Assembly (NCBI GenBank): GCA_965261125.1
Contig: CBDHCS010000005.1
Span: 4,902 to 68,901 of the forward strand
DNA length: 64,000 nt
Source of the DNA: Candidatus Poribacteria bacterium
Lineage (GTDB): Bacteria; Poribacteria; WGA-4E; WGA-3G
Reading direction: 5' to 3'
Part shown: piece after piece, positions 13,167 through 63,417 of the stretch
How the letters are laid out: each line of letters starts with the position of its first letter
Position numbering within the stretch: position 1 is the stretch's first letter
Made by a program: the position numbers and the translations under genes
Notes under the pieces: generated by a model
What the model was told of the DNA's origin: nothing
Database searches by the model: none
Seen by the model: the letters and a program-made list of their open reading frames with translations, nothing else

Positions 13167-13317
13167 GCTAAATGTCAAGCGAAATCTTCAAAACAAAACG
13201 CATTTTCATAATTCACCATATCGATTGAATTGAAAAGTTGTTAGCTTGTGTTATTGTACCGATATTTAGAACTTATCTGTAAACAGGTATAGAAATTTTC
13301 CGACAAAGGAGAAATCA

Positions 13318-14473
13318 ATGGAAAGATACCGAGTTGCTATTTTGGGTTGTAGAGGACGTGGAACAGCAGCTGCACGTGCATATCACGCGCACCCACGCAC
13401 CAAAATTGTTGGGCTTTGCGATTTGATTGAAGAAAGACGCAGAACATTAGGCGATGAAGTCAACGTAACAGCACAGTTCGCCGATCTTGATGAGATGATT
13501 CAACAAACGTCACCTGATATCGTTGCGATACCTACTGGTACTGAGTTTCACTACGATTTGTGTATGCGTGTTTTAGAACACGGCGTGCACATTGAAGTGG
13601 AAAAACCGATGTGTGTTGATCTTATGGAAGCTGATGCTGTGATAGCAAAGGCTGAGGAAAAAGGAGTGCAGGTAGCTGTGCATCATCAAGGGAGAGTTGG
13701 AGCATCTATGCAAGCGATTGCGCATGCCTTCAATGCCGGCAAAATTGGTGAATTGCGCTATATGTACGGCAGTGGAAAAGGATACTACGGTGGTTATGGC
13801 TTGATGAATATCGGCACGCATATGCTCAATAACATGCTACATTTTGGGAAGCGATGTGAAAACGTTGTCGCACAATTGACAACCGGCGGAAAGCCAATCA
13901 CACCCTATGACGTTGCCCCATCACCAAGTGGCATGGGAACTATTGCAGGTGAATATATCACGGCAACGATGCAGTATGAAGGCAACGTTACCGGCACATT
14001 ACTGCAACACCGTTTCGGCAAGATGGACACCAACGCTTATGCTATGGAACTCTTTGGCACCGAAGGCAGACTCTTTTGGAAAAAGCGGTGGTGCATGGCA
14101 CTTACCAACTCCACATTACCTTCCCGATGGCACAAACGACAAGTGGGAAACGCTGGAACTTATCTACCCTGACCACTATGACCCGAAAAGCAGTGCGGCT
14201 GAAGCCGATTACTGGTTTGTTGAGGAATATATCAATGCTTTAAATGAAGGTAGAGCACATACCTGCAGCGGTTATGCCGGACGACATATCATTGAGATGA
14301 TGATGGGCATCTTTGAATCTGCAGCTTATGGCATACGTGTGAATCTTCCCCAGAAAAACCGAAAACATCCATTACTACGGTGGCGTGAGGAATCAGGATT
14401 ACAACCACCAACAGAAATGCCACGCGGTTACGGTGAGTGGTTAACGTTGGAATCTAAGCGAATCCGTCAATGA
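13318..14473 (+). pseudogene. Gfo/Idh/MocA-family oxidoreductase interrupted by a frameshift near 14078..14090 (A5 run)
   Basis: ORFs 13318..14172 and 13907..14473 carry the N-terminal Rossmann part and the C-terminal family part in different frames. Confidence 0.6.
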
Positions 14474-14634
14474 AATCGTGTAGTAGCTGCGGTTTCCTAA
14501 CCGAACTAAATACTTTACACCTATTTTTCTACTATTGACAATTTAGTGGCGCTACGTTACAATAACAACTACTCGTAAAACAGTTGTTTAAAGAAGCGGA
14601 ACAGCAAGCAGTATAAAAATTACAAGGGGACAAA

Positions 14635-15462
14635 ATGAAGTTCAAACGCGAAGAAATTTTAACGCATTTACGCAACAACATTGATGCAGGCAAACCCATC
14701 ATCGGCGCAGGAGCAGGGACCGGTATTTCTGCGAAATGTGAGGAAGCTGGCGGCATCGACTTGATTATCATATACAATTCCGGCAGATTCCGAATGGCAG
14801 GCAGAGGTTCACTCGCAGGCATGATGCCTTACGGAGACGCAAACCAAATTGTCGTTGAGATGGCAAGCGAAGTGCTCCCTGTTGTCAAAAATACGCCTGT
14901 CTTAGCGGGTGTCTGCGGGACCGACCCCTTTCGTTTGATGGATATATTTTTAGCGCAAATAGATGCTGTCGGATTTTCCGGTGTACAGAACTTTCCAACA
15001 GTCGGATTGATTGATGGCACATTCCGCCAACTCCTTGAAGAAACCGATATGGGATACGGCCCCGAAGTGGAAATGATTCGCACAGCACACCAGATGGGTT
15101 TGCTTACCACACCGTATGCATTTAACGAATCTGAGGCTGAACAGATGGCAGATGCAGGGGCAGATATTCTCGTCGCGCACATGGGACTTACGACGAAAGG
15201 TTCTATTGGAGCAAAAACTGCTTTTACGCTTGAAGATGCTGCAAAACGGGTGCAAGCCATCCATGACGCTGCAAAAGGTGTTAACCCTGAAATCCTTGTA
15301 ATCTGCCACGGTGGCCCAATCGCTGAACCTGAAGATGCCACCTACGTCCTTGAAAACACCAAAGGCGTTGTCGGATTTTATGGTGCGTCAAGCGCTGAAC
15401 GCCTCCCGACAGAACGTGCAATTACGGAACAAATTGAAGCTTTTAAAAAAATAAAGTTATAG
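14635..15462 (+). CDS. Phosphoenolpyruvate-hydrolase-like TIM-barrel protein (PF09370-type; usual partner of UPF0261 proteins)
   Basis: 275 aa. [49 protein letters not shown] is characteristic of this family. Confidence 0.55.
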
Positions 15463-17149: not shown

Positions 17150-17309
17150 CAGGACTTACGCATTCCCCACGCTTGCTATTCTTAGCCCCTCGCTTGCGGG
17201 GGGTTGGGGGGATAAAGGGGGTAAAACCTTGAAAAGGACAAAAATCAGGGTTAAAATCCGTGAAAGGACAAAATTCTAAACAGGGATACTTGAATTTGCG
17301 TAAGTCCTG
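17150..17309. repeat. MITE-like element, family A copy 3 (carries a 21-bp internal duplication CGCTTGCTATTCTTAGCCCCT)
   Basis: TIRs CAGGACTTACGCA / TGCGTAAGTCCTG. Confidence 0.8.
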
Positions 17310-20230: not shown

Positions 20231-20354
20231 CAGGACGGACGCATTCCCCTCGCTTGCTATTCTTAGCCCCTCGCTTGCGGGGGGTTGGGGGGTCGGGATA
20301 AAGGAGGGTGTATTAGAGTATTCAAAACACAAAAACGGACCGAGTAAACCACTA
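20231..20354. repeat. Chimeric A/B-family element (A-type 5' TIR CAGGACGGACGCA, B-type 3' end CGAGTAAACCACTA) that abuts the thrC stop codon
   Basis: The last 3 nt of the element (cta) form the thrC TAG stop on the minus strand. Confidence 0.65.
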
Positions 20355-28288: not shown

Positions 28289-28452
28289 TAGGACTTACGC
28301 ATTCCCCTCGCTTGCTATTCTTAGCCCCTCGCTTGCGGGGGGTTGGGGGGGGATAAAGGGGGGTAAAGCCTTGAAAATGACAAAAATCAGGGTTAAAATC
28401 CGTGAAGGGACAAAATTCTAAACAGGGATACTTGATTTTGTGTCCGTCCTGA
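28289..28452. repeat. MITE-like element, family A copy 5
   Basis: TIRs TAGGACTTACGCA / TGTGTCCGTCCTG. Carries the same 21-bp internal duplication as copy 3. Confidence 0.75.
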
Positions 28453-29483: not shown

Positions 29484-31616
29484 TTACCTGAGGATACTAA
29501 ATTTGCCAATTTGTCGGACAACCGAATCTGCTTGCGTTGCAGCGATGTGGTAAATGTAGATACCCGAAGCGAGCGGCACGCCACGAAGGTTTGAACCGTC
29601 CCACTGAAATTTTCCAGGGGCAAGGACATTCTGATGTGTTTTGTTATAGACCTTCTCCCCTTTAATAGTAAAAATTTCAAGGGACACAGTGTCTGCGGAC
29701 TGGGAGGCAGAGAGTTGATACGCAAACGTCATTCCCGATGCTGATGGACGAAAAGGGTTCGGGTAAACACGGATCTGTGCAAGCGCGAAAGATTCGGGTT
29801 CTATCTGTTCGATTAACAACTTGTATGACGCAACACTGCTGAATCTACCGTCGGATGTTACCACAAGATATAACGTCTGTTGAGCAGAAGGTTGGTAAAG
29901 AATTTGGTAGCCGAGTAGATCAGGTGCTTTTTCGCCTATTGCTAACGTCTCTCCTGTCATCGTCAAGAGCGATAAACGGTAATCCAGATTTGCTGGAAAA
30001 TCTGATAGTGTTGCGCGGACTGTTACACCGCCAGCAGCTTCAATTCTATAAGAATCCTGGGTATCCGAAGCGTCGTATAGAAAAGAGTAATAGGGTTGGG
30101 CATAAAAGATTGGGAATGCCGTTCCTATAGTATCATTCGGTTCATAAGTATCACCAAACGAAACGAGCATCTTCATGACTGGGCCTTCAGGGCCAATGTT
30201 AGTTATAGATATACCGGTTGGCGTTCCATCGTTTGCACTACTGTTCGGCAAAGTGCCTGGCGTAAAGGCAGTTTGGTTATCATCTGCAGAGTAGGCTGCG
30301 CCTTCCGTGATGGTTTTGATGTTTATGATGTTCGGATCATCGGGATGAATGCCGAAATGTTCAGGATCATTAGGGTCTTCAAGCCAAATCTGTTGTGCGG
30401 CATCATAACTACGAAGGTCACGCACCTGTGTCTCATCAATGTGCCAAATGAGGATGCCGGATTCAGGCAGATAGGTATCAAAGGTAGCACCGGAGGCTTT
30501 ATATCGGTTTTCTATGAGAAAAAATTCTCTGTTAGTGGTAGCAAGTGCATCCCGGCCCTGTGGAATATCGATTTTAAAAAGTTTATCTGTTTTGGGTGGC
30601 AGTTCGAAAGCTGGAACAGATATCTGGCCACTTTGAGTGATGTTAACAGGCTTAATCCAACCAACGCGACCATTTTCTGGGCGGGCATCAAAATCCCATT
30701 TCAGGTACCCCATGATATGGCTGGGTGCTAATCCGTCCCCTAAACTAAAAACTTCTCGACCTTGATATGGACCGAATGCTCCCATCAATCCCCATTTATG
30801 ATCGCGAGCATCTGTGTAGGTAAACGCGTAGACATCTGGCGCGCCGAAGTCGTGGAAGAATTCGTGAAAGTAGATGCCTAAATGAGGTTTTTCAAAATCT
30901 GGTTCTTCGGCGACAACAACGGCAGTATCAACTCGAACACCGTCTACGATAACGTTGACATCTGGCGTTAAGATTGACCAGATATCATTAACTGCCTTAA
31001 CCGGGTCTATTGCACTGTAGGATGCTTCGTCATTCCCCGCATGAATGAGAAATAGGTGGTCAACGACTCCGTCTTTATCACGATCGTACTTTGAAAAATC
31101 GACGGTTGCATCTACAGCATGGCACGCTTCGGCGATTAGTTCTCGATAACGTTGTACTGGTCCTGGACCTTCAATTTCTCCATAATAACGCATCGGTTTC
31201 TTTGCGCGAATCCATTCGTTGCCTGCGGGCAGAACACCTCCAGCGGGTCCTGGCTGCACATCCATCTGGCCGTAAGAATTTTCGCGAAAGTAGGTTTTTA
31301 GGGAAACACCGGTTTCTGCAAATAGATATTCATTGAATTCAGCGCTGGTTCTTTTGCCCGGTTGATCGCTGAAATCAATTTTCAGGGCGAGGACATATTC
31401 AATACCGTCCGGTTGTAGTACGCTCTGTTCTCTGGCGAAGCAACAGCCATCCAACGCTTGTAAATATTTTGAGACACTGAGTTCAGAATTCTGCCCGGCG
31501 GAAGGTTTCGGCTTCATTTCACCGGTAACCGGATCTATGTCAAAATAGAGATACGGATTAGGCGGAGCAGCAAGACTAAATGTTGTAGCCGTGAGGAGGT
31601 ATCCCACGCAGAGCAT
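29484..31616 (-). CDS. Secreted M6-like (immune-inhibitor-A-type) zinc metalloprotease with a C-terminal beta-sandwich sorting-type domain
   Basis: HEFFHDFGAPDVY zinc-binding motif. Probable signal peptide MLCVGYLLTATTFSLAAP (start 31616; the ORF is open to 31850). The C-terminal about 90 aa resembles T9SS/Por-type secretion domains. Confidence 0.55.
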   Translation of the reverse strand: MLCVGYLLTATTFSLAAPPNPYLYFDIDPVTGEMKPKPSAGQNSELSVSKYLQALDGCCFAREQSVLQPDGIEYVLALKIDFSDQPGKRTSAEFNEYLFAETGVSLKTYFRENSYGQMDVQPGPAGGVLPAGNEWIRAKKPMRYYGEIEGPGPVQRYRELIAEACHAVDATVDFSKYDRDKDGVVDHLFLIHAGNDEASYSAIDPVKAVNDIWSILTPDVNVIVDGVRVDTAVVVAEEPDFEKPHLGIYFHEFFHDFGAPDVYAFTYTDARDHKWGLMGAFGPYQGREVFSLGDGLAPSHIMGYLKWDFDARPENGRVGWIKPVNITQSGQISVPAFELPPKTDKLFKIDIPQGRDALATTNREFFLIENRYKASGATFDTYLPESGILIWHIDETQVRDLRSYDAAQQIWLEDPNDPEHFGIHPDDPNIINIKTITEGAAYSADDNQTAFTPGTLPNSSANDGTPTGISITNIGPEGPVMKMLVSFGDTYEPNDTIGTAFPIFYAQPYYSFLYDASDTQDSYRIEAAGGVTVRATLSDFPANLDYRLSLLTMTGETLAIGEKAPDLLGYQILYQPSAQQTLYLVVTSDGRFSSVASYKLLIEQIEPESFALAQIRVYPNPFRPSASGMTFAYQLSASQSADTVSLEIFTIKGEKVYNKTHQNVLAPGKFQWDGSNLRGVPLASGIYIYHIAATQADSVVRQIGKFSILR

Positions 31617-31635
31617 TATGAATGCAAAAGATCTG

Positions 31636-32955
31636 TTAATCAAATTCACCACCACATTTTCTGCACAAAATGTAGAACTGGATGTCATCAGAATGGGCGT
31701 GTTGTTTAATAAGATCCACTGCTTGGTCCGGCAAATCTGCTTCACATTTTTGGCATTTATAGAGCGAACCTTCGGGTTCAGGAAATTTTCTGATATCGCC
31801 CCAGATGTCATGAAGCCAGTATTTAAATTCCCATGGAAACTCGGTCTCAACAGCTTTAGATATTTCTACTGCATGACGAATTAATTTTTGGCAATCTTCA
31901 AAGGTTGCAGGTTCATACGGGTGAGGTTCTGTGTGGAGGGGAATCGGTTTGCCTTCGGATGCGGTTTCTGGGTTAAACCTGCGCGAACGTGTCAGCAAGA
32001 TTTGGTCTAACCGTGTGCCTGGTTCTCTCCCTTTTGACCAGACGCGGTAATAACCTCGTCTTTTGACGTTAAAATAACCAGGGGTTGACTTCCCCAGTGG
32101 GTGTGTTGAAGTATCCCATAGCCAACGGTTCCATTTGGAATCGTCGCCAGGAACTGCCCAAATTTTGATTGCATTCGGCCCACCTTGTTCATCCCAAGGA
32201 TAAGGTTCTACATCTTCAATGCCGACCCAGTAAGAGTCTTGGCTGCCCGATTTATAATAGGTGCGAATCCATACGTACCACTTACCAGTTTTTGGGATGT
32301 AAACTTCATAAATACTGCGAGCCCCTCTGGCACTGTCGATGGCTTTGCCGTTAGAGGCTTCTGCCTCATCTACAATTTTTACACCGTTATCAAAATGTAT
32401 TGCAGTTTCTGCTTCAATAATAAGCGTATTTCTTGGAACACGGATCAATTCCTGTCTTGTATTTTTCTCTTCTCGCTCAGTTTCTTCTTTTTCTTCTTCT
32501 TCTGGCAGTGCTTGTTCTGGTTCAGTATAACTATTTCCGAACCGTTGACATGCGCGTTCAAACTGTTTTTCGGAAAGGTTTGCATCGTAAAAGCAATCCC
32601 GGACTCCTTTCTTCCAGAGGTCCAGAAGCAGAAACATAGCTTTTAGATTCCCATCAGGTCGTTTACGGGTGCCGACAACAATCAGCATACCGGTATCTCG
32701 TGAACGACTGACAAGACACAGATGGAGTGGATATTCAGGTGGTGCAACTTTTCGGCTTTTTACGATAAGCGGACTATAATATTTACAGCGATGGTCACAT
32801 CCGGGTATTTTTGCCCGTTTAGCACTACAACATTCTGGGCAAATGATCATGCTGCTGAGAGCAGGACATGTACGCTTACCATTACCGGAACGGCATGTAC
32901 GGCATCTGTGTTGTTTGGTACGTTTTTGTCTGGTAGAAAATCTCTGATGGCGCAT
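31636..32955 (-). CDS. Hypothetical protein with Cys clusters at both termini (zinc-ribbon-like) and an acidic linker
   Basis: 439 aa. N-terminal CRTC...CPEC...CDHRC and C-terminal CQKC...CRKCGGEFD. No family recognised. Confidence 0.45.
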   Translation of the reverse strand: MRHQRFSTRQKRTKQHRCRTCRSGNGKRTCPALSSMIICPECCSAKRAKIPGCDHRCKYYSPLIVKSRKVAPPEYPLHLCLVSRSRDTGMLIVVGTRKRPDGNLKAMFLLLDLWKKGVRDCFYDANLSEKQFERACQRFGNSYTEPEQALPEEEEKEETEREEKNTRQELIRVPRNTLIIEAETAIHFDNGVKIVDEAEASNGKAIDSARGARSIYEVYIPKTGKWYVWIRTYYKSGSQDSYWVGIEDVEPYPWDEQGGPNAIKIWAVPGDDSKWNRWLWDTSTHPLGKSTPGYFNVKRRGYYRVWSKGREPGTRLDQILLTRSRRFNPETASEGKPIPLHTEPHPYEPATFEDCQKLIRHAVEISKAVETEFPWEFKYWLHDIWGDIRKFPEPEGSLYKCQKCEADLPDQAVDLIKQHAHSDDIQFYILCRKCGGEFD

Positions 32956-43718: not shown

Positions 43719-44546
43719 TCACCGATAAAGAGTATCTATCATCCGTGCTGCACGGACTGTAGCCTTAACATCATGGACGCGTACAATATCTGCCCCATGT
43801 GTGATTGCCCAACAGGCCGTAGCGAGAGAGCCTTCAACCCTTTCAGTTACAGGAAGGTCTAATAAGTTGCCAATAAAGGATTTTCGTGATGTGCCGATTA
43901 ATATCGGCTTGTTTAGTTGTCTGAATACGTCAAGATGTTTTAAAACCTGTAAATTCTGTTTGATAGTTTTGCCGAATCCGATGCCAGGGTCTACAATTAT
44001 ACGGTTTGGATCAATGCCATTTTGTATTGCATCGTCAATCCAACTTTCTAATGCCTCGTAAATTTCTTTCACGACATTTTGATACTGTGGTGCCTGTTGC
44101 ATTGTACGTGGTGTCCCCTTCATGTGCATAAGTATAACACCCGCTTCCATTTCTGCTGCAACGTGTGCCATCGCGGCATCCCTACGAAGTGCGGTAATAT
44201 CGTTGATGATATGTGCCCCAGCTTCAAGTGCTTGTTGTGCTACCACTGCTTTTGTAGTATCAATGGAAAGTGGAACATTTAGTTGTTCAGAAACAACTGC
44301 ACGGATAACCGGTAATATCCTTTCTAATTCTACTTTTGCTGTCACCGGTTCCGCCCCTGGGCGCGATGATTCCCCGCCGATGTCAATAATAGTTGCCCCT
44401 TCTGCTACCATGGTTTTGGCATGCGCAACAGCAGTGCCAACATCAAGATAAGCACCGCCATCCGAAAATGAATCGGGGGTAACATTTAGAACACCCATGA
44501 TGTGGGTGCTGTCGCCAAAAGAGAGCGATTTACCACGGCAGTTCAT
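43719..44546 (-). CDS. folP: Dihydropteroate synthase
   Basis: [14 protein letters not shown] pterin-binding signature. Confidence 0.9.
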
Positions 44547-46454
44547 ATAAGAGGCTTAGCGGGCAACTGCGGCCGGGGTCCGAGTATCTCTTCAATTTCT
44601 TCAGTAATTAACGTTTCTCGTTCTAACAAGGCATCGGCGAGTAATTTCAAACCCTCAAGATTCGTTTCTATAATCTCTTTTGCCTTTTCGTAACACTCCG
44701 TTATGATGTCAAAAACAGCTTTATCAATAGCAATTGCTGTTTCTTCACTGTAATCCTGGTGTACTGCCAGTTCTTTGCCCAGGAAGACCTGTTCATCTCT
44801 TCTGCCGAAAGCCAATGGTCCCAATGGACTCATCCCCCATTGTGTGACCATTCGACGGGCAAGATGGGTTGCTTGTTCAAAATCGTTTTGTGCGCCAGTC
44901 GTCTGCTCACCGAAGATAATTTCTTCAGCTACACGCCCACCGAGTGCAAAAATAATATGTGCAAGGAGTCCCTTCTTATTTAGATTATGTCGTTCTTCCA
45001 GGGGTAGCTTAGCTGTTACGCCCAACGCTCTCCCACGCGGAACGATTGTACATTTATAGTTAGGGTCACTTTCTGGCACAAAATGCAACATGAGCGCATG
45101 TCCTGCTTCATGATAGGCAGTGATGCGCCGTTCTTCGTCACTAATCACCAAACTACGACGTTCAGGTCCCATCAGAACGCGATCTTTCGCTTCATCAAAG
45201 CAGCTCATATCAATCGTTTCTTTGTCTTGCCTCGCGGCAAGGAGCGCGGCTTCGTTCGCCATATTTTTCAGGTCCGCTCCTGAAAATCCAGGTGTCGCTT
45301 TCGCTAAGATCTCCAAGTTGACATCTTCAGCTATTTTATAAGGTTCTTTTGTGTGAACGTCAAGAATCGCTTGCCTGCCTCGAACATCGGGTAAATCAAC
45401 GATAATCTGACGGTCAAACCTGCCGGGGCGCAATAGGGCAGGGTCAAGAACATCCGGACGGTTTGTAGCTGCGATCACGATGACACCTTCAGACGACTCA
45501 AAACCTTGCATGCCGACAAGCAGTTGATTTAAAGTTTGTTCGCGTTCGTCATGCCCGCCGCCGATGCCAGCCCCTCGATGGCGACCCACAGCATCAAGCT
45601 CATCAATAAAAATGATACAAGGTGCGTTCTTTTTACCCGTTTCAAATAGGTCACGGACTCTGGATGCACCCACCCCGACAAACATTTCAACAAAATCGGA
45701 TCCGCTGATGGTAAAAAATGGGACATCTGCTTCACTTGCAACGGCTTGCGCCAGCATTGTTTTACCCGTACCGGGGGGGACCGACTAACAACACACCTGT
45801 AGGAATTGTTCCACCCAGTCTCTCAAACTTTTTAGGTGCTTTGAGAAATTCAATAATTTCTTCAAGTGCCTCTTTTGCCTCATCTACCCCTGCGACATCT
45901 TCAAACTTTGGTAACTTTTCGTTTTCCGTATGGAGTGTGGCACGACTTTTACCAAAGGAAAGTGCGCGGTTTCCGCTCCCTTGCATCTGCCGAGATAGAA
46001 AAATCATCAACCCCAAAAATATCAATAACGGAACTATTGTTGTGCCGAAAACGAGTAACCAATTAGGAAAATTAGAGGCAGGTTTGGCATTGTACGGGAT
46101 GCCGACGTTATCAAGTCTTTCCTGGATTCCATAATCGTCATTTGTATCACGGCTTGCCTTAAATTCTCCTGCCCATTTTTCAGGCACCACCATATTTGGG
46201 CTTTCCAATTCTATCCTAATTTCCATCAGATAATTCTCGTGAAACTTACCTTCAATCCACTCGTCATCAAGAATCAAATGCCCATCAAAGCGGTTACCTT
46301 TATCCTTTACGTAGTTTGGATCTATGTAGTTATGAAAGTCGGATGTTGCTAACTGGATAACAAGGTCGCCACGGTTGATAAGTTGGTAAATAGCGACAAC
46401 AACAACTAACCCCAAAATAAACCACACAAACATGTTTTTTGTGTTCTTGTTCAC
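44543..46454 (-). CDS. ftsH: ATP-dependent zinc metalloprotease FtsH, interrupted inside the Walker A motif by a 1-bp insertion in a C7 run (plus-strand G7 at about 45769..45776)
   Basis: N-terminal ORF ends ...LLVGPPRYG*. Removing one C restores [16 protein letters not shown]-terminal ORF has the AAA and HEAGH protease domains. ftsH-folP synteny as in other bacteria. Confidence 0.85.
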
Positions 46455-53728: not shown

Positions 53729-53798
53729 CGCTCCAGCGGAGCGATATGTTTATAGAAAAATGTTAGTCCTCTCTACCGCTCCAGCGGAGCGGTATGTG
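53729..53798 (+). promoter_or_regulatory. Paired-hairpin motif, locus 2: CGCTCCAGCGGAGCGATATGTT, then a 26-nt spacer TATAGAAAAATG..., then CGCTCCAGCGGAGCGGTATGTG
   Basis: Same architecture as 22751..22826 with compensatory arm changes (GTCCC/GGGAC to GCTCC/GGAGC). Lies 40 bp upstream of the nitroreductase start codon on the minus strand. Confidence 0.5.
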
Positions 53799-53939: not shown

Positions 53940-54743
53940 TTAATTCCATCCAGTCAATTGCAAGTATTTTTCCCAGAGCGGATCGCCCCACAGCAGCACA
54001 ACCACAGCAGCGCTTGCAAGGAAAGGACCATAAGGAATCGGACTTTGCCGACTTTTCTTGCCAGTTGCGATAAGCAGTGTCCCGATAACAGCGCCACTGA
54101 AAGCAGACAACGCTATCACCATAGGCAGTGCGGGCCACGCTCCGAGAAACAATCCGATGATCGCCATAAGTTTGATGTCTCCGCCTCCCATCGCTTTTTT
54201 ACGCATAATTGCGCTGCCAACAAACGCAATTATCCATAATACCAAACCGCCTGCTACAAACCCAATAAGTCGCATCTTTAGATAATCTAAATCTTTATCA
54301 TGATAAGCAATTGTACACACTATTCCTAATCCAAGCACCAATCCTGTGAGACTTATAACATTTGGAATAATGTAGTGCTGCGCATCAATCACAGCAATCG
54401 GTATCAACACAGACACAAAAATGAGTGCATGTACTAACTCAAGCGTCTTGCCAAATTGGTAGAACATCATGAGAAACAGCACTGCGGTTGCCAGTTCAAC
54501 TATCGGATAAAGGACAGATATTTTCACTTTGCAATGCCGACACTTACCGCGTAAAAACAGATAACTTAAAAGTGGGATATTGTCGTAAAACTTTATTGAC
54601 TGATTACATTCAGGGCAAAAGGACCTGCGCGGCGAATAGATAGACATATCCGAGCGGGGAATGCGGTAAATACAGACATTGAGGAAGCTGCCAATTGCCA
54701 ATCCTAACAGAAAAATGATGATTTGTATCCAGATTTCGTCCAC
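53940..54743 (-). CDS. pilD: Prepilin peptidase (A24 family)
   Basis: N-terminal CxxC...CxxC zinc motif and polytopic membrane domain (LGLAIGSFLNVCIYRIP). Confidence 0.85.
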   Translation of the reverse strand: MDEIWIQIIIFLLGLAIGSFLNVCIYRIPRSDMSIYSPRRSFCPECNQSIKFYDNIPLLSYLFLRGKCRHCKVKISVLYPIVELATAVLFLMMFYQFGKTLELVHALIFVSVLIPIAVIDAQHYIIPNVISLTGLVLGLGIVCTIAYHDKDLDYLKMRLIGFVAGGLVLWIIAFVGSAIMRKKAMGGGDIKLMAIIGLFLGAWPALPMVIALSAFSGAVIGTLLIATGKKSRQSPIPYGPFLASAAVVVLLWGDPLWEKYLQLTGWN

Positions 54744-54746
54744 AGA

Positions 54747-55166
54747 TTACCACCAGTATTTTTCACCTTGTGCAGCGTCCGCGTGATAAACCCTGCTGAT
54801 TTCAGCGATGCCGCCTAACCGATATTTTGTTGGCACACGCGGGTGATTTTTCGCAATTCCGACTTTATAGTTTTCTTGGACCAGGGCATAGTTTCCACCC
54901 CAAGGCGTTTTTGGAACGGATTTTAGATAGGCGCCACGCCACCCTTCTATGCCAGGATCGGTTAAGAGTTGATCCAAACGCGTTGGATACGTCTGGGTGT
55001 GTTTGTAGTATTTCTTGATTGCTATGGCGAGCACTTCAACGTCTACATCTGCTTGGCTAACTTTGCGATATTCTGCCCAGGGTGGATAAGAAAGGACCCC
55101 GATAATAATTACTATTGCAACCAAAATAAGAAGTTGAATGCGGGTCATGCCGCTGTTTTTGTGCAT
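54747..55166 (-). CDS. GspG-like pseudopilin (type II secretion / type IV pilin superfamily), with Gln instead of the conserved Glu at position 5 of the mature pilin
   Basis: Leader MHKNSG | MTRIQLLILVAIVIII. C-terminal ...WRGAYLKSVPKTPWGGNYAL matches the GspG domain. Confidence 0.65.
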   Translation of the reverse strand: MHKNSGMTRIQLLILVAIVIIIGVLSYPPWAEYRKVSQADVDVEVLAIAIKKYYKHTQTYPTRLDQLLTDPGIEGWRGAYLKSVPKTPWGGNYALVQENYKVGIAKNHPRVPTKYRLGGIAEISRVYHADAAQGEKYWW

Positions 55167-55169
55167 TTC

Positions 55170-56552
55170 TTAATTATCAGAATCTGGGCGGGCGATACTG
55201 TATTTATTCATCTTTTTATACAAATTACTTCGCTCAACATCCAACACTTCGGCAGTTCGCTTGATGTTCCAATCATTTTCTTTCAAGGCTGCCACAATAC
55301 ATTGTGCCTCAGCTGAATCAACCATCGTACTTAGCGGTGTATTGGACTGATAAGCTGCCGTAGTGTCTAATATCTGCGCTTCATCCTTTTCGATCGGTAA
55401 CACATCTGCAACATCAGTCGGCAAAATAATATCCCTATTCACCATAATAAGTAGTCGTTCAACAATATTTTTGAGTTCACGAATGTTGCCGGGCCAGCGG
55501 TAAGATTGGAAAACAGGATATGCTTCCGCAGCAAAGGTTTTCGGTGTAGATGCCATATTCATCTGTAACCGTTCAGCAAAGTATTTTGCGAGTATTGGGA
55601 TATCCTCACTTCGGTCCCGCAGCGGTGGCACCTCAATAGGTACAATTTTGAGACGGTAATAGAGGTCTGTTCGGAATTGCCCGCGCTCAATTTCTAAAGG
55701 AAGATTCTTGTTTGTTGCGGCGATGATTCGGACATCAACATTGCGAATCTGCTGGCTGCCGAGTCTCTCCACTTCTCCATATTCAAGCACGCGTAGGACT
55801 TTTGCCTGTGCTTTTAAACTCATATCGCCTATTTCATCAAGGAAAAGTGTGCCGCCATCAGCGAGTTCGAATCGTCCCTGCCGCATAGAATCAGCACCTG
55901 TAAACGCGCCGCGTTCATGTCCAAAGAGTTCACTCTCAACAAGTTCTTCAGGTAACGCTGCACAGTTTAATGGGATAAAGGGTTTGTCAGCACGTTTGCT
56001 ATGTCTATGGATTGCATTCGCAACGAGTTGTTTACCAGTACCATTTTCGCCAGAAATAAGCACCCCCAGATCGCTTGCTGCTACTTGACGTATTTCGGAG
56101 CGAAGTTTGAAAACCGCCTCACTCTCACCTACCATTTCGTCATCAACAACAATCTGTGACTTAAGAATCTCATTCTCTTTTGCTAAACGCGAGAGTTCTA
56201 AAAAAGGTTCGATATTGGATAGAATTTCATCCACACTCGCCGGTTTTGTGATGTACTGCTTCGCGCCGAGCGCCATCGTTTTAACGGCGATTTCAATATC
56301 CTGCTGTGCGGACATCATTACGACATTGAGATGCGGGTGCTGCTCAAGTAATTTTGTCAACGTTTGGACACCATCTATGCCTTTTTCCATCATTATATCT
56401 AACAGTACAAGATCAATATCCTCAGACATACAAAGTTGTAACGCCTCTTCTCCACTCGATGCGGTCAAGGTCTTGTACCTTTTCAGTTTCAATCCTTGGG
56501 AAAGCTGTTTCAAAATGTTCTTTTCGTCATCTACAATAAGGATAGTATTCAT
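55170..56552 (-). CDS. Sigma-54-dependent response regulator (NtrC/PilR type)
   Basis: REC domain (LIVDDE), AAA+ sigma54 activator (GESEAV...GENGTGKQL; GAFTGA) and a C-terminal HTH. Confidence 0.9.
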   Translation of the reverse strand: MNTILIVDDEKNILKQLSQGLKLKRYKTLTASSGEEALQLCMSEDIDLVLLDIMMEKGIDGVQTLTKLLEQHPHLNVVMMSAQQDIEIAVKTMALGAKQYITKPASVDEILSNIEPFLELSRLAKENEILKSQIVVDDEMVGESEAVFKLRSEIRQVAASDLGVLISGENGTGKQLVANAIHRHSKRADKPFIPLNCAALPEELVESELFGHERGAFTGADSMRQGRFELADGGTLFLDEIGDMSLKAQAKVLRVLEYGEVERLGSQQIRNVDVRIIAATNKNLPLEIERGQFRTDLYYRLKIVPIEVPPLRDRSEDIPILAKYFAERLQMNMASTPKTFAAEAYPVFQSYRWPGNIRELKNIVERLLIMVNRDIILPTDVADVLPIEKDEAQILDTTAAYQSNTPLSTMVDSAEAQCIVAALKENDWNIKRTAEVLDVERSNLYKKMNKYSIARPDSDN

Positions 56553-56605
56553 ATTTCTGTGCCTCTAAACTGAGATAGTTCGTAAGTTATCCATCTCCTA
56601 ACCTC

Positions 56606-58519
56606 TTACACGTTAGTTGTTGGCTCGGCCTCAGGCGGTATCATGGCAGGTGTGCTCTCGGTGAGGTATGATGTTTCGTTAAAGGTAATCCGTATCGTTG
56701 TTCCAACGTTTTCAGCTGATTCAACTGCGATTTCTCCACCGTGGACAGTGATAATGCGGCGTACAATTGCCATACCGAGGCCGGTGCCATAGGGCTTAGT
56801 TGTGTAGTCGGATGCAAAAAGGTTTTGTTGGGTTTCTTCGGACATGCCGTGTCCAGTATCTTTCACTTCAAGCGAGATATTCCTACCCTTTTCGAATGGT
56901 ACCGAAAAAGTTCCAAGGGTGAGCGTTCCACCGTCTGGCATCGCTTCAATTGCATTCTTAACAAGATTTCCCACTGCACGTTCCATCTGTTCTTGGTCTA
57001 ATGAGAGTAGTGGCAGCGGGCTCAACTGTTTTTCAACCTTAATATGCTGCGCTTGAGACAATTCCATATACAATTTCAAAACAACATGGACAATATCGTT
57101 CAAATTAACTGGATGTCTATCAGGAACAGGTAATCGGGCATATTGATGAAACTCATCTATTAGTCCACGTATACGGTCAACTTCTTCAATAATTGTTTCC
57201 GTGCATTCATCAAAAATTTTCTCAAAAATTTCCGGTTGATCTTTCGCAGCTTGCAGGTTCTCTACAGAGAGCCGAATCGGAAATAGTGGATTTTTGACTT
57301 CATGCGCGAGTTGGCGCGCGACATCCTGCCACACGGCAACCCTTTCGGCTGCTTTGTGCTCCTCCAAACTCTGCTTCAATGCAAGGGCCATCTGGTTGAA
57401 TCCATCAGCAAGTGTTCCAACTTCGCCCTTAGATTGAACGGTGATTTGATACGCAAGGTTTCCAGCACCGATTTCGTTTACCCCTTGCTTAAGTTGAGCA
57501 ATTGGTCGCGTGATTCGTCTGCTTACAAGATAACTGCTGCAGTATACAAGGACAGCCCCGCCGCCTATACTCAACAATAATATCACCCTCATTTGCCTCT
57601 GCCATTGGATTCTATTTTTATGTGAGTAAGCAATGATCAATTCCACAAAAGGCAATCTTTGCGTATCCGAGAAAGGGATGTTTAAGATGTCTGTACGGAC
57701 AACAGTAAAGGTAGGCGTCCATGTCTCATTATCTGATACTTCTACCGTATCAGATTGCGGAATATCTTTCAAAGTGACCACTAACTCCTTAACAGGTTCC
57801 CCTTCCGCCTCCTTCACCTGCTTCTGTCGTTCCCATTCATCTTTTAAAGTCGGTGTATGTGCAATATAGTTTAAGGGAATCCACTCCTCCTGTTCATCCT
57901 TTCTTTTTACAAGAAAAATCGGATGTTCCTCTGGTTGGCTAAGCATTGCCCCTTCTAACCAATTTTGAAGGGATTTACCACCGGTGACAAACCCCCAATC
58001 CAACCACTGAGTCACCTCAACGACTAACTGCGGTTCCTCATCGGTCTCAATAATCCGCTCACGAATTGTGCCTTTCCCTTCTTTGTATGTCACATCCGAT
58101 TTTGCTTCAGATGCATCTAAAATTTTGCTGCCGATACGTGGGTCATCTCTCCGTTTGCTCAACAACAATATACCCTCGGTATTACCACATTCAAAAACAT
58201 TAAAATTGGTTGGAGGTATGTTTCTGCCACCGCCCCTTTCTACTTCCCGGATAGCACTACGCAAAACCCTATCTTCACCTTTTGCTTTCACCTCGTTTCG
58301 AATAGCATTAACGAATTGTGCATACATCTTGGAAATACGAGATTTCAAGGCTACTACGTCTTTATCAAGTTGTTCATTAAAAGCACGGTCAATCAGTAAA
58401 CTTGCAATCCCAAAGATAACGGCAAACATGAGCAGAAACACCAGGCTATAAGTGAAGAAAATCTTGTTCTGGAGCCGTAGCGTGGATAATTTGTTGAGAA
58501 CTTTTTGCGCATATCTCAT
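56606..58519 (-). CDS. Sensor histidine kinase (membrane, HAMP-like linker, HisKA, HATPase)
   Basis: H-box LAHEVKNPL and ATP lid GTGLGMAIV. 4-bp spacing to the regulator. Confidence 0.85.
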   Translation of the reverse strand: MRYAQKVLNKLSTLRLQNKIFFTYSLVFLLMFAVIFGIASLLIDRAFNEQLDKDVVALKSRISKMYAQFVNAIRNEVKAKGEDRVLRSAIREVERGGGRNIPPTNFNVFECGNTEGILLLSKRRDDPRIGSKILDASEAKSDVTYKEGKGTIRERIIETDEEPQLVVEVTQWLDWGFVTGGKSLQNWLEGAMLSQPEEHPIFLVKRKDEQEEWIPLNYIAHTPTLKDEWERQKQVKEAEGEPVKELVVTLKDIPQSDTVEVSDNETWTPTFTVVRTDILNIPFSDTQRLPFVELIIAYSHKNRIQWQRQMRVILLLSIGGGAVLVYCSSYLVSRRITRPIAQLKQGVNEIGAGNLAYQITVQSKGEVGTLADGFNQMALALKQSLEEHKAAERVAVWQDVARQLAHEVKNPLFPIRLSVENLQAAKDQPEIFEKIFDECTETIIEEVDRIRGLIDEFHQYARLPVPDRHPVNLNDIVHVVLKLYMELSQAQHIKVEKQLSPLPLLSLDQEQMERAVGNLVKNAIEAMPDGGTLTLGTFSVPFEKGRNISLEVKDTGHGMSEETQQNLFASDYTTKPYGTGLGMAIVRRIITVHGGEIAVESAENVGTTIRITFNETSYLTESTPAMIPPEAEPTTNV

Positions 58520-58617
58520 ACTTACATTCCCGAAAAGACACAATGAATTGGGCCATTACGAACGCGGTTATTTCGAACAAACGGACAGACATTTATGTAT
58601 TTGACTATAAAATACCG

Positions 58618-60051
58618 TTAACGCCTTTTCATTTCGCGTGCGATTTGTTCAGTGCGCTTTTTATATCCTTCAACAGCCGATTGATGATAGGTTAACTCTT
58701 CTGCAAGCATTGGAACACCATTGATAAGATGAAGTTCCTGCAATCTGCCTTTTACAGCGACGGTATCCATTAGAGTCCGCATCAATTGGCACAGATTGCT
58801 GATGTCTCGTTTTGGGATCGTTAACGTAACATTCGGAATTCCCTTCTCTGTAAAATCCATCTCTGTCCCACGATACGAGGCAGTTTGACTGTCATTCATA
58901 GAAAGCCCTTCAAATGCCTCTAATCCACTTTTTTCATCTCCATACGGGATTGTTAAGTCTGCACCAAGGTTCTCCCAATGGATAAACATAACTGCCTTAT
59001 CTCTCGGTCCAGCAAGAATACCGTTGAGTATAGAATGATTGCTCGTGGGGCCTTTTGCAGCAATAACGTTAGAACCGATGCCGTTTTCTTGAATCGATTC
59101 AGTATAGAGTTGAACAAACCATTCACCAAGGCGACTGTTGTCTGCATAATTATAGAAAACAATACTACTTGCCCCGTAATATTTCTCAACAGAGTCAAGC
59201 CATAGTGCCAAGTGGGACGCGGTATTATTGGGATGTGTGTATGGCAGCTGAAAACTCTCATCTGCGCGTTGGACACCATCAACCGCAGCATTTATCCTAT
59301 TTTCTGGAGTCTCGTCAATTCCTGCTGTCATCGCTAAAAAGAATAAACCGACAGGTGAAAAAGCAGAAAAACGACCACCGACACCTTCGGGAACAGGAAG
59401 TATACCGTAGAACGAAGATTCTTGATGGAATTGATAGAGAAGACTTTTTTCAGTTAACCCCGTGGTTGCGATAATCTGGTTTCGCCACTCTCCGAATTCT
59501 TGTTGGAGTCTATCCCGAATAATCATTAGCGTTGCGAGGGTTTCACCTGTTTTTCCCGATTTGCTGATGACATTGAAAAGTGTTTTGTGTAACAAGTTGC
59601 GCGATTTCAACATATCAAGTAACGCTTTCAACCGAACTGGATCGAAGGTATCACCTGTGAAGTAGACCTCTGGTGCACTACCTCGTTCAGAAGTTGACAA
59701 TAGGTTGTGATACGGATGATTGGCGGTTTCGTGAAACACACGTGCGCTTAAATCAGACCCGCCTATGCCGACAGTTACAAAAACAGCAAAATCGCCCCTC
59801 GCTTTGGCAGATAAGGCAAGTACCTGTTGAATATGTTCTTTTTGAAGATGGGCGCGTGTCCATGCACGCAAATTTTGCTCTAATACGGATAGCGGCGCAT
59901 CTACCTCCTCTTTAAACAGTGCTTGGATATTCTCCAAACGTTTATCAACTGGACTACCTTCATCTTCCCCATCTGTCTCTGCACAAACAAGCATTTTGAG
60001 TCTCAAACCTGAATCGCTTCCTAATTCTATCTGTTTTACACTTGAATTCAT
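58618..60051 (-). CDS. pgi: Glucose-6-phosphate isomerase
   Basis: VGIGGSDL and ISKSGKTGET motifs. Confidence 0.85.
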   Translation of the reverse strand: MNSSVKQIELGSDSGLRLKMLVCAETDGEDEGSPVDKRLENIQALFKEEVDAPLSVLEQNLRAWTRAHLQKEHIQQVLALSAKARGDFAVFVTVGIGGSDLSARVFHETANHPYHNLLSTSERGSAPEVYFTGDTFDPVRLKALLDMLKSRNLLHKTLFNVISKSGKTGETLATLMIIRDRLQQEFGEWRNQIIATTGLTEKSLLYQFHQESSFYGILPVPEGVGGRFSAFSPVGLFFLAMTAGIDETPENRINAAVDGVQRADESFQLPYTHPNNTASHLALWLDSVEKYYGASSIVFYNYADNSRLGEWFVQLYTESIQENGIGSNVIAAKGPTSNHSILNGILAGPRDKAVMFIHWENLGADLTIPYGDEKSGLEAFEGLSMNDSQTASYRGTEMDFTEKGIPNVTLTIPKRDISNLCQLMRTLMDTVAVKGRLQELHLINGVPMLAEELTYHQSAVEGYKKRTEQIAREMKRR

Positions 60052-60214: not shown

Positions 60215-60625
60215 TTAAACTCTCCCATACTTATCGTCAAGCCGGACAATGTCTTTCTCATCAAAATGTCCGAAAGCGATTTCCAGGACCCTGTAGTTTT
60301 GAGATTCGCCGATGAGTTGATGTTTTGCACCTTGCGGAATAAAAACCGGCTCCATCGGATCGGGATGGACCACCTTATCCTCAATCCGAATACATGCACC
60401 TTCGTCAAGCGGGATCCACAGTTCACTCCGACGGTGATGATACTGATAACTTACCTGTTCACCAGCACGGATCTCCAAAATCTTGACTGTCACCGGTTGG
60501 TTCAGGACATATTGAATAAAACGTCCCCACGGTTTTTCTGTCGTCAATATCTCTGATAGCACTTTAGATGGGTCTGTTATAGGTGCAAATGCGTGTTCGG
60601 CATTTGCAATAATCTGTTTCTCCAT
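60215..60625 (-). CDS. Cupin-domain protein (type-II phosphomannose-isomerase-like cupin)
   Basis: 136 aa. YQYHHRRSELWIPLDEG cupin motif 1. Confidence 0.65.
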   Translation of the reverse strand: MEKQIIANAEHAFAPITDPSKVLSEILTTEKPWGRFIQYVLNQPVTVKILEIRAGEQVSYQYHHRRSELWIPLDEGACIRIEDKVVHPDPMEPVFIPQGAKHQLIGESQNYRVLEIAFGHFDEKDIVRLDDKYGRV

Positions 60626-61056
60626 TGGTCACCTACGCCAACAGTTTGCTATAGTTTAGCACAACTTGAATGGATAAGGCAAGCAGAAAAACGCGTGAAT
60701 CAGAGGCATTCAATTGTCACAGAATACTCTCGTGGGATGGTTTTCTAAGTCCGATATTATAAAATTTCCGCTTTGTCTGAACCAAGATTCTCATGATTGA
60801 AGATTTTGTCCCAACAGATCATTCACAGGGCGCAAAGTTTATGATGCATTGTGCTAAATCCGCAAGAGGCACCTTGATGAAAAATAATCTTGGTAATCTG
60901 CTAATCCTGAAAATCCTGGTTCAGACAATAAGATTCAGAGATTGACATTTAATCCAACCTATAGTAGAATAAATACAACGTTAAAATGATTTATATATTG
61001 CCCACGTTTTTCTATCCAGACAGGTGTTTAGCACAACGCAAAAGGAGAACAAACCG

Positions 61057-62151
61057 ATGAAAAACACGTTGTGTTTAATTTTGACAGCACTGTTGATAGC
61101 ATTCACATTTACATTTAACAGTCTTGCCCAAACCCCACAGGATGATCCACAACAGGGGGATCCACAACAAGGGGATCTCCCTGATGGCGCGGAAGTGCGG
61201 TCCGGGCCTGAGCAAGGTAGGATCAGAGATATAAAGTTTTCCCCCGATGGCACACGCCTTGCAGTGGCGAGAAGCCGCGGTATTTGGCTCTTGGATGTCC
61301 AGACAGGTGACGAACTTGTGCAATTCACAGGTTTTGCGGATTCTGCTGCTACTATTGCATTTAGCCCGGATGGCAATATGTTGGTCGGTAGTAGCATAAA
61401 GGACAATACCGTTCGTTTGTGGGATGTACACACAGGTAGGAACATCCGAGCATTCAAAGGACGCAGTAAGAAGAATTGGGTAGGGGACGTAGCGTTTAGT
61501 CCGGATGGCAAAACTATCGTAATTAGGCGTTGGAACAAAACCCTCTGTCTATTGGATCTGAACACAGGCAAAACCCTCCGAATATTCAAAAAGGATACAG
61601 AAAAGATATCACGTGTTGCGTTTAGCCCGGATGGTAGGACTATCGCAAGTAGCGGTGAGGATAAAACTGTGCGTCTGTGGGATGCACACACGGGCAAAAA
61701 CCTTCACACACTCACAGGGAATACGGAAAGGATATGGCACGTAGCATTTAGTCCGGATGGCAAAATGATAGCAAGTAAAAGTAATGATGATACTGTGCGT
61801 CTGTGGGATACGCACACCGGACAACCCCTACGCACAATATATATGTCTTCTCTTGGCTTCAACTTTGCGTTCAGTCCGGATAGCAAGATGATCGCATGTA
61901 TCGGTTTCGGTACTATCGATCTATGGGATGTGAACACGGGACAACACTTACGAAAACTCATAAAAACCTACAGACGACTAGCTTCTACACTGAATATCGG
62001 ACGCTTGATTGCGTTCAGTCCGGATGGCAGGATGATCGTAAGTGCTGGTCCATTTGAAGTCCATCTGTGGGATGCAAACACAGGACAACTCCTCCGAAAA
62101 CTCATAAGTCATCCCAAAGGCACTGATGTACGATCATTCCAAAGGAACTAA
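61057..62151 (+). CDS. Secreted WD40 beta-propeller protein (paralog 1)
   Basis: RBS AAAGGAG. Signal peptide MKNTLCLILTALLIAFTFTFNSLAQ, then about 7 FSPDG...WD blades. Confidence 0.75.
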   Translation: MKNTLCLILTALLIAFTFTFNSLAQTPQDDPQQGDPQQGDLPDGAEVRSGPEQGRIRDIKFSPDGTRLAVARSRGIWLLDVQTGDELVQFTGFADSAATIAFSPDGNMLVGSSIKDNTVRLWDVHTGRNIRAFKGRSKKNWVGDVAFSPDGKTIVIRRWNKTLCLLDLNTGKTLRIFKKDTEKISRVAFSPDGRTIASSGEDKTVRLWDAHTGKNLHTLTGNTERIWHVAFSPDGKMIASKSNDDTVRLWDTHTGQPLRTIYMSSLGFNFAFSPDSKMIACIGFGTIDLWDVNTGQHLRKLIKTYRRLASTLNIGRLIAFSPDGRMIVSAGPFEVHLWDANTGQLLRKLISHPKGTDVRSFQRN

Positions 62152-62154
62152 CCG

Positions 62155-63417
62155 ATGAAAAATAGATTGTTTTCAATTTTGACAGCACTTTTGATAATAG
62201 CATTCACATTTACATTTAATAGTCTCGCCCAAGATTCACCGCAAGAGGATATAGAGGATTTACTTGAATCAATACGAGAGAAAGCAAAGGATTTAAGTAA
62301 GGCCGAGAAAACGGGCGCGGTCAATAAACTTGTTTATTCTACCAACGATATAAGTTTTTCCCACGATGGCAAACGGCTCGCGTTGGCAGGGAACTACGGC
62401 ATTTTGATCTACGACATTCAGAGAAATCGCAAAAACGTTCAGGCAAGTTACAAACCTACCAAATTGAGAGAACATCAGAGGAGAGGGTGGCGGGTAGCGT
62501 TTAGTCCAGATGGCAAGCTAATCGCAAGTGCGAATGCTACAGGCACCCTTTACCTATGGGATGCGAAAACGGAAAAACTCCTTCGGACAATCGAAGGTGA
62601 GCCAGGATATTCACCTTTCTCGTGTATGGCATTTAGTCAGGATGGCAGGATACTCGTTACCGGAGGGAACAAGATTATCACAAGGGATCCTTGGATAAGC
62701 GAGGGCATAGTGCTTTTGTGGGATGCACAGACAGGAGAACACATCCGAACCCTAACAGGACATACGAGACATGTCGATAGTGTGGCATTTAGTCCGGACG
62801 GCATAACTATCGCTGCGGGTGACTCCGTCACTATCAGGGCAGATGGTAAAGACAGTGGAGATGCCACAGTGCGTTTATGGGATGCACGGACGGGAAAACT
62901 TCTTCGGACCTTAATGAGACATGGGGGTGAGATCAAATGCTTGGCGTTTAGTCCGGATGGAAAACTGCTCGCAAGTGGTGGGCCGTTCGACCCTGTTCGT
63001 TTATGGGATGTAAACACCGGACAACACATCAGAACACTCGCAAGTGATAGGACAAGAACTCCGAAGGATCTGGATCAAGGGAGGCCGTCGTTTGATTCGG
63101 TAGATAGCATTGCATTTAGCCCAGATGGTAGCACACTTGCAAGTTCCAGTATACTGCGGGCCCGCCTATGGGATGTAAAACGGGGACGACTCCTCCTAAA
63201 ATTCAGAGACCAAAATTCAGGCAATGGTCCTAGTGTAGTGGCGTTTAGTCCAAATGGAAAGACTATCGCAATCAGTAGAAGTTATGAACTTGAGCAAATA
63301 GTTCCCAAAAGCAATGGCGTTAAAATTACGAAAGAAATAGAACTGTGGGATGCGGAAACGGGAAAACATCTCCATAGGATCAAGTTAGAAAGGTACAGAT
63401 TCCAAATTTACCGATGA
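62155..63417 (+). CDS. Secreted WD40 beta-propeller protein (paralog 2)
   Basis: Signal peptide MKNRLFSILTALLIIAFTFTFNSLAQ is nearly identical at DNA level to paralog 1. It starts 3 bp after the paralog-1 stop. Confidence 0.75.
   Translation: MKNRLFSILTALLIIAFTFTFNSLAQDSPQEDIEDLLESIREKAKDLSKAEKTGAVNKLVYSTNDISFSHDGKRLALAGNYGILIYDIQRNRKNVQASYKPTKLREHQRRGWRVAFSPDGKLIASANATGTLYLWDAKTEKLLRTIEGEPGYSPFSCMAFSQDGRILVTGGNKIITRDPWISEGIVLLWDAQTGEHIRTLTGHTRHVDSVAFSPDGITIAAGDSVTIRADGKDSGDATVRLWDARTGKLLRTLMRHGGEIKCLAFSPDGKLLASGGPFDPVRLWDVNTGQHIRTLASDRTRTPKDLDQGRPSFDSVDSIAFSPDGSTLASSSILRARLWDVKRGRLLLKFRDQNSGNGPSVVAFSPNGKTIAISRSYELEQIVPKSNGVKITKEIELWDAETGKHLHRIKLERYRFQIYR

Follow-up and report, generated by a model that had tools for sequence, protein, structure and literature searches.

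A Poribacteria-specific gene pair for a PilD-type prepilin peptidase and a GspG-fold pilin-like protein with glutamine at position 5

In type IV pilins and pseudopilins, few residues are as strongly conserved as the glutamate at position 5 of the mature protein (Glu5), which is held to be necessary for subunit docking and platform recruitment. At the cytoplasmic face, prepilin peptidase cuts its substrates after the glycine at position -1 (Gly-1), and it methylates the N-terminus so formed; Glu5 forms a pair with, and neutralises, the N-terminal amine of the neighbouring subunit, and the tip cap is the only subunit that normally lacks Glu5 (PMC10191384). The title of Nivaskumar 2016, as listed in 10.1101/2022.09.21.508927, names Glu5 as needed for pseudopilin recruitment by the T2SS (type II secretion system) platform. 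The kinase PilS has six transmembrane (TM) segments and makes direct contact with PilA, and its partner PilR works with sigma54 at the pilA promoter (PMC6058289). The present analysis concerns a 64-kb stretch of a Candidatus Poribacteria contig (the window), in which the genes for a sensor histidine kinase (HK) and an NtrC-type response regulator (RR) are followed by those for a GspG-like pseudopilin with glutamine at position 5 (Gln5) and a PilD-type prepilin peptidase. The Poribacteria are dominant uncultured symbionts of sponges, and their secretion pathways are largely unknown.

Gene domains were assigned by Pfam and spacings were read directly from the sequence. The four open reading frames (ORFs) run in one direction on the minus strand and fill exactly 53940-58543, and their Pfam domains are those that the initial annotation had predicted for them. 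Comparison across the phylum indicates that the last two genes are a Poribacteria-specific two-gene module, predicted to consist of a PilD-type peptidase and one GspG-fold, Gln5 pilin-like protein with a mature length of 133 amino acids (aa). The favoured reading, to which a probability of about 0.5 is given, is that this protein is processed by the neighbouring PilD and does not polymerise canonically, and that it would be either an inner-membrane-anchored periplasmic GspG-like protein or a non-canonical subunit. The features of the four-gene block are as follows.

56606..58519, minus strand: sensor histidine kinase (HK), 637 aa, from the ATG at 58519; the longest ORF begins at a TTG at 58543
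56553..56605, minus strand: HK-RR spacer of 53 nt, read from the sequence, with an AGAGG ribosome-binding site and without a hairpin
55170..56552, minus strand: NtrC-type response regulator (RR), a sigma54 enhancer-binding protein, 460 aa (Sigma54_activat, 1.7e-71)
54747..55166, minus strand: GspG-fold pseudopilin-like protein, 139-aa precursor (T2SSG)
55166-55149, minus strand: leader MHKNSG, with predicted PilD cleavage between 55149 and 55148 and mature N-terminus MTRIQ
55134..55136, minus strand: CAA codon of mature position 5, encoding Gln in place of the Glu5 found in canonical type IV pilins
53940..54743, minus strand: bifunctional prepilin peptidase/N-methyltransferase of the PilD/GspO type, 267 aa, GTG start (A24_N_bact, 9.6e-35; Peptidase_A24, 9.6e-20)

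A translated leader and an invariant Gln5

The precursor has a class III signal peptide, with MHKNSG before the predicted cleavage site and MTRIQLLILVAIVIIIGVLSYPP after it. N-termini and codons were counted in 89 loci, which represent more than 80 Poribacteria species. In 81 of the 89 the reading frame includes a leader of 6-11 residues, with Gly just before M/I/L-T-x-[ILV]-Q, and the Gly-1 codon is GGG in 31 of these, GGA in 20, GGC in 15 and GGT in 15. Since all four synonymous codons are used, the leader is translated and selection acts on the protein and not on an RNA element; in addition, three loci have ATA or TTG at position +1, so that translation must start upstream. The alternative that MHKNSG is untranslated sequence is ruled out by both observations, and the many database gene calls that begin at Met7 (133 aa) are thus truncated. 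Gly-1 is absent from the other eight loci (L050, L051, L055, L056, L068, L085 and L088/L089), which start exactly at the predicted mature Met or, in L068, have Arg at -1; L050, L051 and L085 carry at most a short non-canonical extension. Pilins that start at the predicted mature Met provide independent support for the predicted cleavage site.

At position +5 the codon is CAA in 71 loci and CAG in 18, and GAA or GAG in none. These codons are one base change away from Glu, yet Gln is invariant in 89 of 89 loci. A profile alignment with full-length PulG (from the 5wda pseudopilus structure) places Gln +5 on PulG Glu5. The replacement of Glu5 by Gln that was proposed in the initial annotation therefore stands, and its fixation in 89 loci makes it a family trait and not a one-off mutation. 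Recovery of Glu5 through an alternative cleavage site, which would have undone the proposal, does not occur, because Glu is not encountered ahead of residue 32 of the precursor and a cut at any other site would not place it at position 5. The family conserves Thr2 and Pro22, while position 3 is mostly Arg and at times Trp or Leu. The N_methyl model (PF07963) has no match to the pseudopilin at E <= 0.1 and appears in precomputed Pfam lists only on canonical relatives. Class III motifs in more distant T2SSG-domain relatives gave 92 hits, of which 82 have Glu at position 5, and the non-Glu hits are mostly spurious, with N-termini that are not class III.

The remainder of the protein has the hydrophobic alpha1N segment (about 20 residues, with Pro22) and the alpha-beta fold of a pilin. 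An AlphaFold2 model built from a 72-sequence alignment, with a mean predicted local distance difference test (pLDDT) score of 91.7, shows a small beta-sheet behind a long N-terminal helix, and a Foldseek search of the PDB with this model returned solely T2SS major pseudopilins (EpsG, GspG and PulG) at probability 1.0. Taken with the T2SSG Pfam match (38.2 bits against a cut-off of 21), with the conserved Thr2, Pro22 and class III leader, and with the GspG name already on some NCBI records, these structural matches favour a conventional T2SS major pseudopilin (GspG) with its peptidase (GspO), for which gspD/E/F and the minor pseudopilins would lie elsewhere in the genome and in which Gln5 is tolerated and the protein polymerises to a periplasmic pseudopilus. 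This reading, the main rival of the favoured one, is possible but somewhat doubtful. The pseudopilin scores 30.5 bits on the GspG equivalog model (TIGR01710), for which the cut-off is 88.85, and it lacks the PF07963 match of the canonical relatives. Its profile alignment to PulG and EpsG stops at about residue 103, leaving unaligned the last 40 or so residues, which include the region of the GspG Ca-binding loop and carry the family-specific motif PRVPxKYRLGGIAEISRVY...WW. Arg at +3 would be an added uncompensated charge, and Glu5 is reported, in the source given above by its title, to be essential for pseudopilin recruitment, as well as for the inter-subunit salt bridge.

In a set of distant T2SSG-domain relatives (P0198, P0204, P0141, P0164 and P0175), there are proteins whose N-termini are of the lipoprotein or Sec type, multi-repeat proteins in which up to five T2SSG-like stretches occur, and one class III protein whose +5 residue is His (GLTRLHVLIAV). 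Several GspG-like domains on lipoprotein-type or Sec-type N-termini show that, among distant relatives, the domain has uses outside filaments.

The pilin-PilD pair and its neighbourhood

Relatives were found in 100 stretches by a scan of one genome per species, and the best 80 of the 100 are here called genome loci; 84 loci overall were used for upstream scans and 83 related loci, with 10 kb on either side, for the neighbourhood. The pseudopilin has about 180 close homologs (68-91% identity), and all named ones, including the named hits in a set of 120, are from Candidatus Poribacteria. The best 80 loci, one per genome, are labelled Poribacteria in 77 cases and 'uncultured bacterium' in three. 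In an exhaustive HMMER search and in a profile search, the family reaches down to about 30% identity, where its named members (P0143 and P0304) are still Poribacteria; the E-value then jumps from 4e-30 to 8e-13, after which come canonical pseudopilins with the N_methyl domain and GFTLIE. The pilin-PilD locus is a clean conserved marker for Poribacteria.

PilD directly follows the pseudopilin wherever the contig allows it (83 related loci), mostly with a gap of 3-10 nt. Some loci carry inserts between the two genes. The insert in L002 (10460-11185) is 727 bp long and contains GC-rich palindromes as well as tandem copies of a repeat, about 22 bp in length (TTTTTCGTTGTTCGCGAGGCG), and inserts of 100-320 bp were seen in other loci.

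The arrangement of HK and RR with pilin and PilD is far beyond chance. It belongs to a conserved block, MPI-PGI-HK-RR-pilin-PilD, whose first two genes encode sugar-phosphate isomerases and whose end in the window is followed by a pair of palindromes.

60215..60625, minus strand: protein with the C-terminal domain of cupin-type mannose-6-phosphate isomerase (MPI), first gene of the conserved block
58618..60051, minus strand: divergent phosphoglucose-isomerase-like (PGI) gene, a conserved upstream neighbour ending 98 nt ahead of the HK ATG
53729-53743 and 53777-53791, minus strand: palindrome CGCTCCGCTGGAGCG, a 15-mer in two exact copies 48 bp apart, between pilD and a nitroreductase gene

Of the 80 genome loci, 73 have the MPI-PGI-HK-RR block upstream of the pilin, as do 76 of the 84 loci overall. 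One clade (7 of 80 and 8 of 84, respectively) has a cupin and an M20 peptidase upstream and no two-component system. In distant Poribacteria lineages the pilin and PilD genes, which often overlap there, are without a two-component system in all lineages examined and sit behind a gene for a PQQ-propeller protein, a siroheme synthase or a short-chain dehydrogenase. Because the pair persists in distant lineages with unrelated neighbours, pilin plus PilD form the conserved unit, of which the two-component system is a lineage-specific neighbour, present ahead of it in most sponge-associated species and not beyond these. The initial annotation, which took the four-gene operon as the unit, overlooked this. 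RR and pilin also lie at varying distances, 3 nt apart here and up to about 400 nt apart in other loci; measured from the RR stop to the codon of the mature Met, the distance is 21 nt here, among the shortest (20 nt in L023), and reaches 440 nt. In L091, from a distant lineage, pilD is directly followed by the shikimate pathway genes and others in the order aroC-aroK-aroB-aroQ-efp-accB-accC (10384-14800), an order that recalls the pilQ-aroK-aroB linkage of proteobacteria.

PilD carries the motifs CPEC...CRHC, IDAQHYIIPN and GGGDIK. Its four-Cys motif and both Asp motifs are kept in nearly all loci, including those with a leaderless neighbouring pilin, and PilD is intact beside pilins without Gly-1 wherever pilD is complete (the contig end truncates L085, and L089 stops short of pilD). 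Retention of both catalytic Asp residues beside a leaderless pilin suggests that PilD has other substrates. This, like the conservation of the pilin at about 70% across the phylum, as is the case for periplasmic GspG and unlike surface pilins, is in keeping with a conventional T2SS. No match to the first-Asp motif was found in PilD of L088, and none to the second catalytic motif, GxGDxK, in the PilD ORFs of L042, L074 and L081. The PilD match in L042 spans residues 1-159 only, and this pilD may be a pseudogene or an assembly error. PilD had no NCBIfam match at E <= 0.01.

The initial annotation had noted that no ATPase or secretin lies nearby, and this agrees with two scans. Among 49 of the larger ORFs of the window (at least 150 aa and not contained in longer ones, with the four genes and their neighbours added), Pfam detected no ATPase, platform or secretin of a type IV filament and no further pilin, and the window plus 1.6 Mb of related loci (10 kb either side, 83 loci) is free of T2SS-E type Walker A motifs. 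By motif scan the class III signal peptide of the pseudopilin is the only one in the window, and a canonical Glu5 class III peptide is absent from the window and the same 1.6 Mb. In about 90 loci, no gsp gene adjoins the pseudopilin gene, which argues against the conventional T2SS. A literature search gave nothing specific on pili or T2SS in Poribacteria. Secretion systems are encoded by few lineages of sponge metagenome-assembled genomes (Robbins 2021), and Poribacteria have many sorting domains of the Por or type IX secretion system (T9SS) type and no T9SS structural genes (Kamke 2014, PMC3909097).

The missing Glu5 could also mark the protein as a tip or cap subunit, a minor pilin of the GspK or PilX type that forms the first subunit of a filament made of pilins encoded elsewhere. 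The capping subunit of known filaments lacks Glu5 (PMC10191384), and the gene is single-copy per genome (80 species loci). Tip pilins normally cluster with partner minor pilins, none of which is nearby, and neither GspK-like size and fold nor clustering of the GspH/I/J type was found when looked for, which makes this reading highly improbable.

The two-component system, gene spacing and other features of the window

HK has HAMP, HisKA and HATPase_c domains and the H-box LAHEVKNPL. Its first TM helix spans approximately residues 20-44 and is followed by a periplasmic domain of about 265 aa (approximately 45-310), the second TM helix (approximately 311-332) and HAMP. The AlphaFold2 model of the sensor domain, for which the search gave 4 homologs, has a pLDDT of 39 and is unusable. 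RR consists of Response_reg, Sigma54_activat and HTH_8 (a Fis-type helix-turn-helix, HTH), and its AAA+ domain has GAFTGA. The two proteins resemble those of the AtoS/AtoC, NtrC and ZraR types, the best NCBIfam match of HK being AtoS-like (190.8 bits against a cut-off of 646), and all NCBIfam equivalog cut-offs are missed; HK and RR are thus assignable to neither a pilus-regulating nor a nitrogen-regulating family.

The initial annotation compared the operon to PilS/PilR control of pilin genes and suggested a look for sigma54 promoters before pilin-like genes. The scan of the loci covered 300 nt upstream of each gene for a -24/-12 element with at least 8 of 10 positions and with GG and GC fixed (GG-N10-GC), and none was found before MPI, PGI, HK, RR or pilin in the 84 loci. 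In the window, no TGGCAC-N5-TTGC site with up to 2 mismatches lies near the operon, and the exact matches at 44425 and 61248 are inside coding regions. A weak sigma70-like site lies just upstream of HK. Given that there is no sigma54 element near the block, the targets of RR probably lie elsewhere.

These results bear on whether the locus is an autoregulated pilin operon of the PilS/PilR type, in which the kinase would respond to the pilin pool or to a surface signal, and pilin and pilD would be transcribed under the sigma54 activator. In 76 of 84 loci HK and RR immediately precede the pilin, with a spacing of 3 nt here, and RR shares the REC, sigma54-AAA+ and HTH architecture of PilR. A kinase with two TM helices, HAMP and a large periplasmic domain differs, however, from the six TM segments of PilS (PMC6058289). 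The absence of sigma54 promoters also speaks against such an operon, as does the lack of a two-component system beside the pilin in eight loci and in all distant lineages examined. HK identity falls to about 42% while the pilin holds at about 70%, and the sugar-phosphate isomerases of the block could be the true regulatory partners. An operon of this type is accordingly improbable, and the likeness to PilS/PilR drawn earlier is not supported.

Ortholog comparison places the HK start at the ATG at 58519 rather than at the TTG at 58543. The distances from the RR stop to the pilin ATG and from the pilin stop to the PilD GTG are both 3 nt, in agreement with two of the three gaps first given (4, 3 and 3 bp). 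The 4 bp between HK and RR is not borne out, as 53 nt separate the HK stop (56606) from the RR ATG (56552). An ATG located 9 nt past the HK stop (56593-56591) was rejected as a gene start since it opens only a 9-codon out-of-frame ORF. No minus-strand terminator-like site was detected within the four-gene block. The two copies of CGCTCCGCTGGAGCG compare with 0.06 expected by chance, and a hairpin was flagged at this palindrome downstream of pilD, but on the plus strand; the pair possibly marks the end of the transcription unit, as terminator hairpins or as a repetitive extragenic palindromic (REP)-like element. The tight packing of RR, pilin and PilD is consistent with the single transcription unit proposed in the initial annotation, while the inclusion of a two-component system in such a unit is lineage-specific. 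Judged by the gene order and gaps, pilin and pilD are probably co-transcribed with HK and RR in this genome, and most simply they would be read-through products of the HK-RR transcript.

Elsewhere in the window, the 15-mer TAGCCCCTCGCTTGC has three exact plus-strand copies (17183-17197, 20264-20278 and 28322-28336), where none is expected by chance; none of them falls within the listed plus-strand ORFs of 150 aa or more, which points to a dispersed intergenic repeat. The ftsH gene is apparently split (44543-46454, minus strand): a 404-aa ORF has a truncated AAA domain and Peptidase_M41, and the ORF upstream of it ends ...LLVGPPRYG*, a frameshift within the Walker A motif. The split is either an assembly indel or a pseudogene. 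An M6-type metallopeptidase (29484-31850, minus strand) has a C-terminal FlgD_ig/CHU_C sorting domain of the T9SS type. Large WD40 beta-propeller proteins, a hallmark of Poribacteria, are encoded at 3762-6068 (minus strand) and 61024-63417 (plus strand), and the motif LTALLIAFTFTFNSLAQ is common to the signal-peptide-like N-termini of two WD40 proteins at 61-63 kb.

Proposed function and comparison with known systems

If the favoured reading is correct, PilD would remove MHKNSG at the cytoplasmic face of the membrane and would probably N-methylate Met1. With the neutral Gln in place of Glu5, usually together with Arg at +3, buried positive charges would be left uncompensated in a filament core, which makes entry into a canonical polymer unlikely. 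The Gln5 protein would most likely stay out of the canonical Glu5-dependent polymer and would function as a GspG-like protein of the periplasm, anchored in the inner membrane, or, at most, as a non-canonical subunit in machinery that other parts of the genome encode. Expression of the module may be tied by the adjacent two-component system to a periplasmic signal in sponge-associated lineages, where this system would be an addition to the core module.

Several points weigh against this reading. A complete T2SS or type IV pilus system may be present elsewhere in the Poribacteria genome, beyond the window and loci searched. Thr2, Pro22 and the N-methyltransferase domain are features tied to filament assembly, and the intact PilD beside leaderless pilins suggests that its other substrates are other pilins in the genome. 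Co-transcription with HK and RR is inferred from spacing.

A self-contained module, made up of PilD and the Gln5 GspG-like protein without an ATPase or filament, is a more far-reaching proposal and an unlikely one. PilD would mature, or perhaps only N-methylate, a membrane-anchored periplasmic pilin-like protein that might be a co-sensor or partner of the adjacent kinase in sponge-associated lineages. Were it true, the bacterial class III signal peptide pathway would serve a role outside any type IV filament; likewise, if the assembly machinery is absent, the locus would represent a filament-independent use of the pilin/peptidase pair in bacteria. The phylum-wide occurrence of Gln5 with a leader, Thr2, Pro22 and a dedicated PilD, and with loss of the leader in some loci, amounts to a natural experiment on Glu5, cleavage and N-methylation.

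The system closest to the pseudopilin is the T2SS major pseudopilin (GspG, PulG and EpsG), with which it shares the Gly-ended class III leader, the hydrophobic alpha1N, Thr2 and Pro22, as well as the T2SSG domain, a DPWG..Y motif and the lack of a disulfide bond. Unlike these proteins, it has Gln at +5 and usually Arg, not Leu, at +3. The PRVPxKYRLGGIAEISRVY...WW segment appears to replace the region that aligns to the Ca-binding loop of GspG, and, in contrast to GspG, the protein is never seen in a gsp operon, always adjoins PilD and is limited to Poribacteria. It resembles the tip minor pilins without Glu5 (the GspK and PilX/PilK class) in having no conserved Glu5, but it is small, has a GspG-type fold and is without GspH/I/J-type partners in its cluster.

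The order of kinase, sigma54 activator and pilin on one strand is shared with the PilS-PilR-PilA system for regulation of type IV pilin genes (Pseudomonas), and pilS-pilR-pilA is the gene order in Myxococcus and Geobacter. The REC, AAA+ (GAFTGA) and HTH_8 architecture that RR shares with PilR is generic to all NtrC-type regulators. The Poribacteria kinase, unlike PilS, has two TM helices, a periplasmic sensor and HAMP rather than six TM segments; the pilin begins 3 nt after RR, leaving no intergenic promoter region, and there is no sigma54 promoter; and the link of kinase and regulator to the pilin is missing in part of the phylum. Finally, PilD matches the A24A peptidases PilD and GspO in its two Pfam domains, its pair of catalytic Asp motifs and its four-Cys zinc motif, but differs from these in that it always adjoins, or is translationally coupled to, one Gln5 pilin-like gene, even where the product of that gene is leaderless.

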